The notes beneath the pieces are model-generated. The model had not been told where the DNA came from, did not search any database, and saw nothing but the letters and a program-made list of their open reading frames with translations. A stretch of DNA of 64,000 bases, taken from Actinomycetales bacterium. Its GTDB lineage: Bacteria > Actinomycetota > Actinomycetes > Actinomycetales > CAWJMD01. The first letter of the stretch is position 1. Every line of letters begins with the position of its first letter. Below are positions 26,658 to 38,098 of this stretch, one piece after another. The stretch covers positions 128,760 to 192,759 of the forward strand of contig JBKECN010000034.1 of NCBI GenBank assembly GCA_047974565.1. Reading direction: 5' to 3'. A program made the translations under genes and the position numbers.

Positions 26658-26667
26658 TCCGGCAGGG

Positions 26668-26833
26668 TAAGGGCCCGCCAGTAAATTGGTGCGTCGAGTG
26701 TCGGTTTCTGGGCGGGATGTCTGGCAAGGCAGAGGTTTGCCCTCGTAGTAGCGCTACGGGGGCGGGCCGACGACGCAGCCAGACGCCCGAGCCAGGAAGC
26801 GACACGCAGCAGCAATCTATTGGCGGGCCCTTA
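26668..26833. other. 166-nt extended imperfect hairpin; candidate structured RNA or palindromic element
   Basis: Outer 21-nt arms TAAGGGCCCGCCAGTAAATTG / CAATCTATTGGCGGGCCCTTA (19 Watson-Crick pairs, 1 G-T, 1 mismatch). Inner helices are GTGTCG/CGACAC, TTTCTGG/CCAGGAA, CGGG/CCCG and GTCTGG/CCAGAC, with two apical mini-hairpins. Confidence 0.5.
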
Positions 26834-27132
26834 GCTAAGGAGCGCCCCGAGGCCTGGCCGCCGACGCGCCGGTGCCGGGCGTGCCTGCGGACGGTTGGTT
26901 CCTCAGGGCCCGGTTGGGCAGACGACGTTCGTCGTGGCCGGGACTGGCCGTGTGCGTGGCGCCGACCGGTGCTGCGCAGCGTTGCCGGGCCGAGGGCGAA
27001 TGGGTGAACACCTGCCCAAGCCGTCGCCGCCCGGCGCACGGGCCAGGGACGCTTCAGGGTGGCACCTGACGGCAATTCCGTCGGGGTCGCCTACTCTGGA
27101 AATGTCTACCACTCAACGAAGGAGCAGTACCC

Positions 27133-33964: not shown

Positions 33965-35341
33965 GTGGTGGACGCCGAGCGAGACAACCGGGTCCGGGCG
34001 CTGCCGCGCGAACAGCACGTCACGGGCGGGTGCCACAGGCTGTCGGGAGATGAGATGCCGAGCTCCGAGTCAGGCACGGGCGATCCCCGCGTCCGCGAAC
34101 GGTCGGTGAACCGGGTGCACCAGCCGGGAGGCGAGCGACCTCGACCGCAGGTGGCCGAGTCGTGGCGGCGCGCCCAGGCCAGCGGCCTCGATCCGTCCGC
34201 CGACCCGAGCAACCAGCCGCTGCCGGAGTCCGAACGCGAGCATCGCCGGGCCACGTCCGGCTTGGAACCGCTGATCCCGGGACTGCGGGCGAACCTCGAT
34301 CCGGTGCTGCGGATGGGGTACCTGCTGGTCATCACCGATCCGCAGGCCCGGGTGCTGTGGCGGTTCGGCGATCCGGGCTCGCGGCGGCGGGCCGACCAGT
34401 TGGGCTTCGTGTCGGGGGCGGACTGGTCCGAATCGAATGTGGGCACCAACGCCATCGGCACCACGGTGGTGCTCGGTGATCCCGTCCACATTCGCGGCCC
34501 GGAGCATTTCGCCGACTCGCACGCGGCCTGGGGATGTGCGGCGGCTCCCCTGGTGGACCCGTGGACCGGGAAGGTGCTCGGCGTCATCGACGTCAGCGGC
34601 GCCAGCCGGCAACTCAACCCTGCGGCGATGGCCCTGGTGACGATGGCGGCGCAACTGGCCGGTCACGAACTCCTTGAGCGGCATCGTGGCCGGTTGGACC
34701 GGTTGCGCCAGCGTGCCGCGCCGCTGGTGGCCGCGCTTGGCGGGCAGGCCGTGGCGGTCGACCTGGCCGGTCACGTGGCAGCGGCCATCGGCCTGTCGGC
34801 TCCGGATCGGGTACACCTGCCGACCGGCCTGGCCGCGGGCCCGGTGCGGCTGGCGGAACTGGGCGCCGGCCACGCCGAGCCCTTGCCCGGCGGCTGGCTG
34901 ATCAGGATCGATCCGGACGAGGCGTGCGAGGCCACCTCCGCCCTGGTGATCCTGGACGGCGTGCCGAGGCTTCTGGTGAACACCCCGGGCGGCCAGTGGA
35001 CGCATGACCTGACCCGTCGGCATGCGGAGATCCTGCTGGCGCTGGTGGCTGCCGGGCCCATCGGGCTGACCGGGCCCCAGCTGGGTGCGGCGGTGTTCGG
35101 TGAGGCGGCCCCGTTGGTGACGGTGCGGGCAGAGATCTCCCGGCTGCGTAAGGCCCTCGGCGCGGTCTTGCAGGCGCGTCCGTATCGGATCGCCGCCGGC
35201 GTCAGCGTGCAGGTGCGTCTGCCCGCCGACGGCTGGACGCTGCTCCCGGGCTCGACGGCGCCCGTGGTGAGCCGGATCCGCGAACTGCATCGTCCGGGCA
35301 CGCAGGACTGGACCAGGTGCCTGGAGGCGCTGGAGGAGTGA
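33965..35341 (+). CDS. GAF-domain transcriptional regulator (AcoR-N-terminal-like), divergent from the monooxygenase
   Basis: SNVGTNAIGTTVVLGDPVHIRGPEHF...WGCAAAPLVDPWTGKVLGVIDVSG is the GAF block of this regulator class. The C-terminus is helix-rich and DNA-binding-like. The start is uncertain (ATG 34055 is possible). Confidence 0.65.
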   Translation: MVDAERDNRVRALPREQHVTGGCHRLSGDEMPSSESGTGDPRVRERSVNRVHQPGGERPRPQVAESWRRAQASGLDPSADPSNQPLPESEREHRRATSGLEPLIPGLRANLDPVLRMGYLLVITDPQARVLWRFGDPGSRRRADQLGFVSGADWSESNVGTNAIGTTVVLGDPVHIRGPEHFADSHAAWGCAAAPLVDPWTGKVLGVIDVSGASRQLNPAAMALVTMAAQLAGHELLERHRGRLDRLRQRAAPLVAALGGQAVAVDLAGHVAAAIGLSAPDRVHLPTGLAAGPVRLAELGAGHAEPLPGGWLIRIDPDEACEATSALVILDGVPRLLVNTPGGQWTHDLTRRHAEILLALVAAGPIGLTGPQLGAAVFGEAAPLVTVRAEISRLRKALGAVLQARPYRIAAGVSVQVRLPADGWTLLPGSTAPVVSRIRELHRPGTQDWTRCLEALEE

Positions 35342-35355
35342 CGGGCCCATGCGGG

Positions 35356-35545
35356 GAACGAGCTGGGCAAGTGACGCGGGCAAGCGAACCGGGGAACGAG
35401 CTGGGCAAGTGACGCAGGCGAGCAACCCGGCGAACGAGCTGGGCAAAGTGACGCGGGAGCAACCCGGCGAACGAGCTGGGCAAGTGACACGGGCGAGCAA
35501 CCCGGCGAACCAGCTGGGCAAGTGACACGGGCGAGCAACCCGGCG
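35356..35545. repeat. 37-39-bp tandem repeat x5 (GAACGAGCTGGGCAAGTGACRCGGGCGAGCAACCCGGC)
   Basis: Copies at 35356, 35395, 35433, 35470 and 35508, with a degenerate tail to ~35610. It starts 15 nt after the regulator stop, and the gene's own 3' end (GCGCTGGAGGAGTGACGGGCCCATGC) resembles a unit. Confidence 0.9.
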
Positions 35546-35646
35546 AACACGCAACGCGGACGAGCGGTGCAGGCGAGGGTGCAGACGAGCGGGGCAGACG
35601 AGCGCGGGCGGACCAGCATTACCCAGCGCTCTGGGAGGATGCCTGC

Positions 35647-36372
35647 ATGCGGTGGGGCGAGTTCGTGCGACAAGTCAGGGATGCCGGCGTCGCGACGGCG
35701 CGGCAGGTCCAATCGGCCCGGGCGGTCCGGGCGCGCGGCATCGTCGATTCCGCGTCCACCGGCTCACCCGGTTCCGGGAGCCGGCCCTCGCCGGACGGGG
35801 CGCCACCCCGCCGGGAGCCTGCCGCCGTGCGGGGCCGGGTCGGCGCGGTGGCCAGGCGAACCCGCCGCTCGGTTGCCGGCGGCGCTCGCACCGCGGTTGC
35901 CCGAGTCACCACTCGCCGTTCCCGTTCGCGGCCGATCACCCCACCCAATGACGGGCGGCCGCTGGCCTACCCGGGCGACTTCACCGGTGCAGTGGAGTTG
36001 CGGTATGCGCCGCGGCCGGATTCCCACGCCGACCCGGGGGAGGTCGTCTGGGCGTGGGTGCCCTTCGAGGAGGACCATCAGCGGGGCAAGGATCGGCCGG
36101 CGCTGGTCATCGCCAAGGAGAGCCAGTGGCTGCTGGCGCTGATGCTCACCAGCCGCGACCACGACCTGGACTCCCCCGCACAGACTCGCTCCGGACGCTC
36201 GTGGTTCGACATCGGTACCGGTGACTGGGACCCCCAACGTCGACCCAGCGAGGTGCGCACCGACCGGATCATCCGGCTCGACCCGGTGCGGGTGCGCCGG
36301 CAGGGAGGACGGGTGAGCCTGCGGGTCTTCGACGCCGTCGCCGCGGAGGTGCGCCGGGTCAACGGCTGGTAG
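35647..36372 (+). CDS. PemK/MazF-like domain protein with long Arg-rich N-terminal extension
   Basis: The C-terminal half DPGEVVWAWVPFEEDHQRGKDRPALVIAK...RTDRIIRLDP fits the PemK-like fold signature. The first ~110 aa are low-complexity. Confidence 0.65.
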   Translation: MRWGEFVRQVRDAGVATARQVQSARAVRARGIVDSASTGSPGSGSRPSPDGAPPRREPAAVRGRVGAVARRTRRSVAGGARTAVARVTTRRSRSRPITPPNDGRPLAYPGDFTGAVELRYAPRPDSHADPGEVVWAWVPFEEDHQRGKDRPALVIAKESQWLLALMLTSRDHDLDSPAQTRSGRSWFDIGTGDWDPQRRPSEVRTDRIIRLDPVRVRRQGGRVSLRVFDAVAAEVRRVNGW

Positions 36373-36494
36373 CCGACGATCGACTGGTTGCAGACGAGCG
36401 AAGGTTCGGCTCCTGGCGACACCATGTTCGGGGTCGACGCCCCACGCGCCCGGCAGGCCCCCGCTGCGCGGCTTGGCAAGTCGGAGGCAGAGCG

Positions 36495-37145
36495 TCGACG
36501 CCCCACGCGCCCCGCGGGCCCGCGGGCCGCGCCCACCCCCCAAGCGCCCCACCAGCCACGCGTACCACCCACGGACGCAGACACCCGGCATCCCACCGGC
36601 CGCCACCCCCGCGACCACGAACCCAGTGACCACTCTCGCGTCCCTGAGACACATTTACGTACACCGAACCGGAGCGGCGGGCACCACCCGCTCGCGGTGT
36701 AGACAAACACGTCCCAGCCACACATTTGCGTACACCAGAACGAGGCGGGATCGACGCCCCACGCGCCCGGCAGGCCCGCGGGCCGCGCCAACCCCCCAAG
36801 CGCCCCACCAGCCACGCGCACCACCCACGAACCCAGACCACCGGCATCCCACCGGACGCCACCCCCGCGACCACGAACCCAGTGAACACTTTCGCGTCCC
36901 TCAGACACATTTACGTACACCGAACCGGAGCGGCGGGCACCACCCGCTCCCGGTGTACACAAACACGTCCCAGCCACACATTTGCGTACACCAGAACGCG
37001 GCGGGGTCGACGCCCCACGCGCCCGGCAGGCCCGCGGACCGCGCCAACCCCCCAAGCGCCCCACCAGCCACACGTACCACCCACGAACGCAGACCACCGG
37101 CATCCCACCGGACGCCACCCCGCGACCACGAACCCGGTGAACACG
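36495..37145. repeat. 256-bp tandem repeat, about 2.5 copies (plus a ~30-nt partial copy at 36433)
   Basis: TCGACGCCCCACGCGCC starts at 36495, 36751 and 37007 (period 256). Copies are more than 90 percent alike by eye. The plus strand is strongly C/A-rich. Each unit carries ACACATTTRCGTACACC twice, flanking a 14-bp interrupted hairpin. Confidence 0.92.
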
Positions 37146-37170
37146 GCGGTGTGCGGCTATGGGCGTCCGG

Positions 37171-37611
37171 TCAGCGGGGCTCGCAGATGACCACCGGGAT
37201 GTCGCGGGAGGTACGCCGTTGGTACCCGGCGTAGCCACGGTAGGCGGCCACGATCCGAGGCCACAGTTCGCCCTTCTGCTCGGCGCTGGCGGGGCGCGCC
37301 AGCATCGGCCGGGTCACCCCGTCCAGGGTCAACTCCACGTCGGGATTGGCGAGCAGGTTGCGGTACCAGTCCGGGTCCCGGTCGTCCCCTCCTTTGGAGG
37401 CCACGAGCACCACGGTGTTGCCGTCGATGACCGGCGCGGTGAGCATGGTCGAACGGCGCTTGCCCGACGTGCGGCCGATCGTGTGCAACTCGACGACGGG
37501 CATCGGCCCGAGTCGACCACCGAGCCGGCCCCCGGAAAGAGCCAGCACGCTCTTGTGGAGGACATTGACGACCCGGTGCATTCGGTCTATGACGAAGTCG
37601 CGCACCTGCAT
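37171..37611 (-). CDS. Nitroreductase-family deazaflavin (F420)-dependent oxidoreductase (DUF385)
   Basis: [17 protein letters not shown]...[22 protein letters not shown]...[12 protein letters not shown]. The ORF was trimmed to ATG 37611. Confidence 0.8.
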
Positions 37612-37834
37612 CCGCACACCGTATCCGGGCGGATCGCCCGTCGAGGACGACGCCCCTGCGCGCCGGCGGTGGACACGCATCCGGCTGCCTGCTGGTAGCC
37701 TTGTGTGTTGCGTGTCCGCGTGGTCGTGCGGGCGCCATCTTTTGTGTGACCCACGATGCAGTGTCCCCACCCTGCGCGCGGGCCGCCAGCCCTCACCGAC
37801 CAGTGACCCGAAAGACCGACGAGAAAGCAGACCT

Positions 37835-38098
37835 GTGGCGAACATCAAGTCCCAGATCAAGCGCAACAAGACCAACGAGAAGGCTCGGCTGCGCAACAAG
37901 GCCGTCAAGTCCGAACTCAAGACGGCCGTCCGCTCGTTCCGAGACGCCGTCAAGGGCGGCGATGCCGACGCCACCAGCAAGGCGCTGGCGAACGCCTCTC
38001 GCAAGCTGGACAAGGCCGTGAGCAAGGGCGTCATCCACAAGAACCAGGCGGCCAACCGCAAGTCGGCGATGGCCAAGGCGGCTGCCAACGCCTCCTGA
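37835..38098 (+). CDS. rpsT: 30S ribosomal protein S20
   Basis: [30 protein letters not shown]..., 87 aa, GTG start. Confidence 0.95.

Follow-up and report, generated by a model that had tools for sequence, protein, structure and literature searches.

The closest described counterparts of the locus reported here are the REP sequences and REPINs of Escherichia coli and Pseudomonas fluorescens SBW25, the BIMEs of Enterobacteria and the TRIT motif of Mycobacterium. REP sequences and REPINs are short imperfect palindromes that occur in extragenic DNA only, reach a hundred or more copies per genome and are specific to a lineage. Their doublets fold into a long hairpin, they build tandem arrays in which two types alternate, and one strand folds better than the other. 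In BIMEs, short conserved linkers join palindromic units into clusters, which lie after genes or between convergent genes. The palindromic units of BIMEs alternate in orientation, and the BIMEs of E. coli bind IHF and gyrase. For SBW25, ordered tandem arrays of two alternating REP types, including arrays with a 72-bp spacing, have been described that closely resemble the one reported here (Bertels & Rainey 2011, PMC3116915). The TRIT (Tuberculosis Rho-independent terminator) motif, a conserved palindrome, has been described in Mycobacterium only, where it sits at about position -8 and overlaps the stop codon; M. tuberculosis has 147 copies close to the termini of genes (Gardner et al. 2011, PMC3152330).

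We analysed a stretch of 64,000 nucleotides (the window, to which all coordinates without a contig name refer) from an Actinomycetales bacterium. The genome (G000) is represented by an assembly of 5.31 Mb in 107 contigs with 68.7% GC, and the locus lies on contig C105. Between two convergent genes Tandem Repeats Finder (TRF) identified one tandem array at 36495-37144, with a period of 256, 2.5 copies, 94% matches, no indels and a score of 1160; since the assembly is this fragmented, array copy numbers may be mis-assembled. The array probably arose when a lineage-private REP/BIME-like (REPIN-like) repeat was amplified in tandem at this locus; we saw no sign of a novel type of RNA gene or of regulatory array. 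As a search for the RAYT gene gave no match, we class the repeat as functioning in the manner of REP/REPIN and do not assign it to the REPIN-RAYT system. The array and its surroundings comprise the following features.

35647-36372, plus strand: open reading frame (ORF) of a PemK/MazF-like toxin (Pfam PF02452, E 2e-11), convergent with the array
36429-36470: 42-nt partial copy of the beginning of the unit, 61 nt ahead of unit 1 (family D3)
36495-36750: unit 1 of the 256-bp array (TRF score 1160; family D1)
36751-37006: unit 2, sharing 94% identity with unit 1
37007-37144: unit 3, truncated; its last letters are CCCGGTGAACAC, the 12 nt with which an A-type left arm begins
37171-37617, minus strand: F420H2-dependent quinone reductase (Pfam PF04075, E 1e-33, on the ORF 37171-38088)
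37835-38098: rpsT, beyond the quinone reductase gene
about 36378-37688: segment of 1.3 kb with the array and the quinone reductase gene, absent from this position in same-genus and same-family genomes

The sequence TCGACGCCCCACGCGCC starts at 36495, 36751 and 37007, as an earlier, preliminary description of the locus had stated, and over their first 116 nt all three units show 91-92% identity with the reference unit. The partial copy, found in a repeat search to be 79-90% identical to the three unit starts, had been placed one base off at 36433; its TCGAC starts at 36434. The third copy, said to be truncated near 37145, does indeed end at 37144, part-way through an element's left arm, and the stop codon of the quinone reductase gene lies 27 nt further on. 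With so short a gap, the transcript of that gene would extend along the array's G/U-rich strand. The start of that gene at 37617 was picked by the codon model. The true start of the PemK-like gene is probably later than the beginning of its ORF, because the domain covers only amino acids 130-237; homology to relatives starts at about 35968.

The non-coding nature of the 256-bp array was borne out. A codon-usage gene caller trained on the genome itself called nothing between 36372 and 37171, and Pfam (E<=0.1) yielded no match for the four long ORFs that span the array. A period of 256, which is not a multiple of 3, also counts against coding. A search of Rfam with 35000-38000, both strands, gave no match at E<=1, and the array corresponds to no known mobile element, Rfam family or conserved ORF. 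The gene-free stretch at the locus measures ~780 nt and is one of 51 loci of a repeat family. The oddity of this stretch is explained by its being a repeat-family locus, and for the same reason annotators should not call ORFs, small RNAs or operators there.

The strand asymmetry noticed earlier is equally real. The plus strand of 36429-37145 contains 335 C, 183 G, 150 A and 49 T, that is, a GC skew of -0.29 and an AT skew of +0.51, and is thus strongly C/A-rich. The G-quadruplex potential deduced from this asymmetry did not hold up: there are no canonical G3+N1-7 motifs on either strand of 36429-37145, and only two motifs when loops of up to 12 nt are admitted, both in unit 1. Such a strongly C/A-skewed strand in the arrays, and an actinobacterial host, distinguish the present case from the REP/REPIN systems of E. 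coli and SBW25.

The preliminary description treated the array as a one-off and proposed a BLASTN search of the 256-bp unit, which showed otherwise. When one unit was compared with its own assembly, positions 1-80 were found only at this locus and positions ~82-128 had a few relatives elsewhere in the genome, while positions 129-171 had ~80 and positions 200-243 had ~35. The part of the unit with the dispersed family is thus 129-243, and the palindrome that it contains is present in ~118 copies at 51 intergenic loci. In the window this part corresponds to pairs of elements of two types, A and B.

36618-36671, minus strand: A-type element, copy 1 (covariance model R1, C105:165377-165430, 63.1 bits; also an nhmmer match)
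36689-36742, minus strand: B-type element, copy 1 (R1, C105:165448-165501, 44.5 bits)
36618-36742, minus strand: A-B doublet of unit 1, the equivalent of 36874-36998
36874-36927, minus strand: A-type element, copy 2 (R1, C105:165633-165686, 73.7 bits)
36945-36998, minus strand: B-type element, copy 2 (R1, C105:165704-165757, 56.5 bits)
36874-36998, minus strand: A-B doublet, REPIN-like, a 125-nt rod by RNA folding, with fixed spacing at other loci

Element A reads CCAGTGAACACTTTCGCGTCCCTCAGACACATTTACGTACACC and element B CCGGTGTACACAAACACGTCCCAGCCACACATTTGCGTACACC. The plus strand of A copy 1 has the form CCCAGTGACCAC..GCGTC-CCTGA-GACAC..CGTACACC, B copy 1 the form GGTGTAGACAAAC..ATTTGCGTACACC, and B copy 2 makes a near-perfect 19-bp hairpin on the G/U-rich strand. 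The twin 17-mers of the preliminary description, ACACATTT[A/G]CGTACACC, are present at 36650-36666, 36722-36738, 36906-36922 and 36978-36994, and its conserved hairpin at 36915-36958, both as described at the time; their interpretation changes. The 17-mers are the right arms of the A and B elements, and the hairpin is the centre of the 125-nt A-B rod, in which the right arm of A pairs with the left arm of B. The A and B copies in the window are 72 nt apart. The same A to B doublet occurs at 72-73 nt on contigs C26 (three times), C75 (twice), C83 and C89 (twice), and doublets with this fixed spacing were counted at five or more loci. The 26-nt spacer within the doublet is constant in length and differs in sequence between loci, and the spacer hairpin CCGGAGCGG/CCGCTCC is therefore found at the window locus alone. 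As near-palindromes that point the same way, the two members do not form an inverted pair, and most copies of the family lie outside A-B doublets.

On the minus strand, the doublet 36874-36998 is predicted to fold as RNA into a single rod of -58.7 kcal/mol (z -5.4, 0/200 shuffles as good), and its plus strand into a structure of -33.0 kcal/mol (z -2.8). The same strand preference was observed for B alone (36945-36998: minus -27.6 kcal/mol, z -5.2; plus -12.7, z -2.7) and for the whole 256-bp unit (minus -135 kcal/mol, z -3.4; plus -80.5, z -2.1). Element A alone (36874-36927) yields -15.0 kcal/mol with z -1.4 on the minus strand and -4.6 with z +0.3 on the plus strand, and as single-stranded DNA it folds no better than shuffles (z about 0). 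This weak folding of the commonest element type, in RNA and single-stranded DNA alike, speaks against our main reading.

Iterated nhmmer searches of the genome recovered 118 non-overlapping copies in 51 clusters, and the covariance model R1 (54 positions, 17 pairs) recovers all of these copies. The element is an imperfect palindrome of ~46-54 nt, for which reason nearly all copies also match on the opposite strand. Its stems are CCAGTGAAC / GTACACCRG (outer) and GCGTC / GACRC (inner), with a T/A-rich internal loop that is conserved and a loop of 3-5 nt. Standard pairs account for 87.4% of 1,190 cells on the G/T-rich strand (minus in the window), compared with 27-53% in slid controls and with 68.9% on the C/A-rich strand; the gap between the strands is entirely due to G-U wobble (22.8% vs 4.3%). 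Across the family, 54-mers have a mean RNA minimum free energy of -19.7 kcal/mol on the G/U-rich strand (median z -1.6) and of -12.4 kcal/mol on the other (median z -0.9). Compensatory covariation did not exceed that in shuffles (6 cells vs 25 expected; 87.4% paired vs 87.8% in shuffles). We consequently attribute the pairing to the inherited consensus, as would be expected of a young repeat, and do not take it as a sign that structure is under selection; it may simply come from a master copy.

The unpaired bases of the internal loop, GGAAAT / AAAAGT, are as conserved as the stems (at least 90%), which could point to recognition by a protein instead of a structural role. Together with an alternative reading of the element as two direct repeats ACGnAAAnGTGTnC ~20 bp apart, with the fixed doublet spacing of 72-73 bp (~7 helical turns) and with the precedent of IHF and gyrase binding to BIMEs, this conservation would suit an array of sites for a nucleoid-structuring or regulatory protein, or a set of small RNA genes, in which the AT-richer blocks are bound or act as promoters. 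The preliminary description had proposed sites or genes of this kind. We regard this explanation as quite improbable, since the array contains no sigma-70-like promoter, the clusters lie near stop codons, at gene ends and not at gene starts, with an enrichment between convergent genes, the neighbouring genes share no functional theme and Rfam offers no match. Close relatives are without such sites, so there is no conserved regulon. The third suggestion made at the time, a recombination substrate, came closest, in that neighbouring repeats would drive tandem amplification.

The central 5-mer of the element was found in both orientations: TGTGG in 22 copies and CCACA in 16, TCACA in 8 and TGTGA in 2, CCTGG in 4 and CCAGG in 4. 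Such a flip-flop of the loop is expected of DNA hairpin-mediated inversion or of exchange between copies in both orientations. Some copies carry terminal inverted repeats CCAGTGAACAC...GTGTTCACTGG, for example those at C34:62164, C76:11941 and C43:58665. Terminal inverted repeats, a high copy number, a recent spread and the absence of the family from relatives would be compatible with a MITE derived from an insertion sequence (IS), whose terminal inverted repeats would be the arms, the array being a product of nested or adjacent insertions. However, the elements, at 46-54 bp, are far below typical MITEs in size, neither a full-length element nor an isolated arm is present in the assembly, and the flanks show no consistent target-site duplication. 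The units moreover share their spacers, which fits tandem duplication better than repeated insertion, and a MITE is in our view very improbable.

The distribution of the family is narrow. A strict pattern gave 70 matches in G000 and none in 40 relatives, including two genomes of the same genus. Among ~185,000 species genomes it gave one match, attributable to chance; this collection and those of metagenome, plasmid and phage sequences may omit records of the genome itself or of very near relatives. Metagenome contigs contained 21 strict-pattern matches, none of which scored with the covariance model, and plasmid and phage records had no match to the 256-bp unit. With R1, nothing convincing was found in 10 genomes of the same family (two marginal matches, E 0.002 and 0.008), and no match was obtained in 120 genomes from 24 families of the same order. 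On these sequence comparisons the family appears limited to one species among those searched. The presence of ~118 copies in one species, with none in genomes of the same genus and no RAYT in the genome, is further evidence that Actinobacteria harbour fast-turnover REP-like repeats.

Candidates for a gene that drives the family were sought in several ways. No RAYT (Y1_Tnp, PF01797) was detected in the genome, which is 97.8% complete, and the control genomes gave matches. The absence of RAYT and of any gene flanked by elements sets the family apart from REPIN-RAYT systems. Two weak DUF559/MTES_1575 genes (C27:65567 and C57:100952) were the candidates for an HTH/Vsr-like nuclease; neither is near or flanked by elements, and both were rejected as partners. 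A single-arm profile found no arms outside complete elements in the genome, so that separated arms flank neither a gene nor an IS. An all-vs-all BLAST of 193 flanking proteins revealed no recurrent neighbour family except common SDR paralogues, and the genes next to clusters have no common functional theme. These negative results, like the lack of compensatory covariation and the conservation of the internal loop, count against our main reading.

No called gene contains any of the 51 clusters, and two of the clusters overlap a called ORF marginally. In all 19 multi-copy clusters the copies point one way, a clear difference from BIMEs, whose units alternate, and from REP/REPIN, in which cluster members are inverted. 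The arrays have periods of 70, 82, 92, ~183, 256, ~318 and 332 bp and comprise up to 13 copies in the largest; their linkers are conserved within arrays, as in BIMEs, and the list of the family includes the array C12:122221-122562. The spacers of arrays are skewed family-wide (GC skew -0.16, AT skew +0.30; GC skew negative in 17 of 19 clusters), and single-copy flanks are not (-0.01 and +0.12). CRISPR arrays were considered and rejected, as the spacers are repeated within arrays and the periods vary from 70 to 332 bp.

Called genes flank 46 clusters on both sides: 20 of these clusters lie between convergent, 18 between tandem and 8 between divergent genes. Convergent spacers make up 15-16% of intergenic space, against 20 of 46 clusters (binomial p about 4e-6 to 1e-5). 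Clusters between tandem genes are nearer to the upstream stop (median 53 nt) than to the downstream start (median 192 nt; Wilcoxon p 8e-4), and the distance after the stop ranges from 12 to 232. Orientation relative to the upstream gene shows no preference (11 vs 7).

This placement brings TRIT to mind, which is the nearest actinobacterial analogue. Both are sequence-conserved, palindromic and hence bidirectional, number ~100-150 copies and are located at gene termini; TRIT is set apart by its placement on the stop codon and its genus-wide conservation, whereas the present elements follow the stop at a distance of about 10-120 nt, are strung together in long tandem arrays and do not occur in relatives of the same genus. 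With the TRIT precedent, the enrichment of clusters between convergent genes at ~53 nt after stops, the near-palindrome that could work in both directions and the stable hairpins on the G/U-rich strand would allow the element to be a dedicated motif for termination or 3'-end protection, and the array a reinforced bidirectional stop for both convergent genes. Several observations make this rather unlikely. No hairpin is followed by a T-tract, and the terminator scan of 36372-37171 was empty on both strands; a U-tract is reported as needed by mycobacterial RNA polymerase (PMC3993855). Eight clusters lie between divergent genes, orientation is indifferent although the two strands fold very differently, and covariation is lacking. 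A core termination signal would also not be expected to be missing from species of the same genus, and arrays of up to 13 copies exceed the needs of termination. A canonical intrinsic terminator, with a GC-rich hairpin and a T-tract, was likewise rejected for both strands of 36372-37171.

A scenario based on the amplification of a REP/BIME-like repeat would account for the structure of the array as follows. The family would have been spread by a mobilising activity that may act in trans, be lost or be unassembled, and would persist where insertion is harmless, downstream of genes. At the window locus, a doublet and ~130 nt of adjacent C-rich sequence were probably duplicated head to tail, presumably by unequal recombination or replication slippage between neighbouring elements, with 2.5 units of 256 bp between two convergent genes as the outcome. 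As a side effect, the G/U-rich strand would become the 3' UTR of the quinone reductase mRNA and fold into stable rods, which may block exonucleases or assist termination. Transcription from the PemK-like gene would continue into RNA that is rich in C, poor in G and weakly folding, a type favoured by Rho.

A more elaborate version, which we consider unlikely, makes the repeat a RAYT-independent REPIN-like mobile element of Actinobacteria that is moved by an enzyme hitherto not connected with such repeats and whose strongly polar arrays serve as two-faced transcription barriers insulating convergent genes. One strand would provide G/U-rich RNA rods as hairpin blocks or RNase substrates, and the other a C-rich, G-poor, unstructured RNA that loads Rho.

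Comparison with relatives indicates how the locus differs from its counterparts. The surrounding 20 kb are largely collinear with the same-genus genome G002. A distance of 39-52 bp separates the PemK stop from the conserved rpsT promoter region in G001 and G007, and in G002 an unrelated spacer of 364 bp, which is not a dispersed repeat in that genome, lies between the two. G000 thus carries 1.3 kb of extra DNA at this position. The idea that elements mark synteny breakpoints or cassette junctions was dropped: the flanks were adjacent in G002 or G001 at 0 of 6 other element loci and at 3 of 10 random convergent spacers without elements (Fisher p about 0.25, calculated by hand).

The repeats are also practical markers. 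They break short-read assemblies, the length of arrays is likely to vary between strains, and copies of the element lie at the ends of contigs C4, C9, C14 and C49.

The dispersed imperfect palindrome of about 46–54 nt, a REP/BIME-like family with approximately 118 copies in the source genome, carries a central 5-mer that lies between the inner-stem GTC and GAC. In an alignment of 111 copies, this loop was present in both orientations at similar frequency, as exemplified by TGTGG (22 copies) versus CCACA (16 copies). Such a flip-flop of the loop points to hairpin-mediated inversion or to bidirectional exchange among the palindrome copies.

The largest arrays of the family in the source genome, and the elements located at or near contig ends, are as follows:

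C53:39970-41391, array of 13 elements
C53:67798-68882, array of 8 elements
C4:24-67, element at or near a contig end
C9:55-465, element(s) at or near a contig end
C49:276-320, element at or near a contig end
C14:17413-17456, element at or near a contig end

Both arrays are situated between convergent genes on a single 79-kb contig and display a higher-order pattern of approximately 237 + 70-83 bp. The elements at or near contig ends probably mark points where the repeat interrupted the assembly, and the real number of palindromes is consequently likely to exceed 118.

At the equivalent of 36378-37688, the gene for the F420H2-dependent quinone reductase and the 256-bp tandem array are absent from four related genomes (G001, G002, G004 and G007), and beyond the far end of this segment lies the conserved rpsT promoter region (CTGGTAGYCTTG...). 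The PemK-like ORF on the other side (35647-36372, 241 aa) has a toxin domain limited to aa 130-237; DNA similarity to the relatives begins inside this ORF, at about 35968. The true gene is probably shorter than the ORF, with a product of some 110-135 aa. Upstream of the ORF, no gene for an antitoxin was identified. Two further tandem arrays are found 5' of the PemK-like domain:

35352-35548, 38-bp unit, 5.2 copies, 91% match
35559-35617, 13-bp unit, 3.6-4.5 copies

A genome-wide search revealed no second copy of the 38-bp array.

A rod-like hairpin of 166 nt at 26666-26834 belongs to a different dispersed repeat. Whereas the 46-nt palindrome family is not common to the genus, this repeat is: it matches at least 17 places in the same-genus genome G002 (74-86% identity), including tandem copies at C2:215288-215708.
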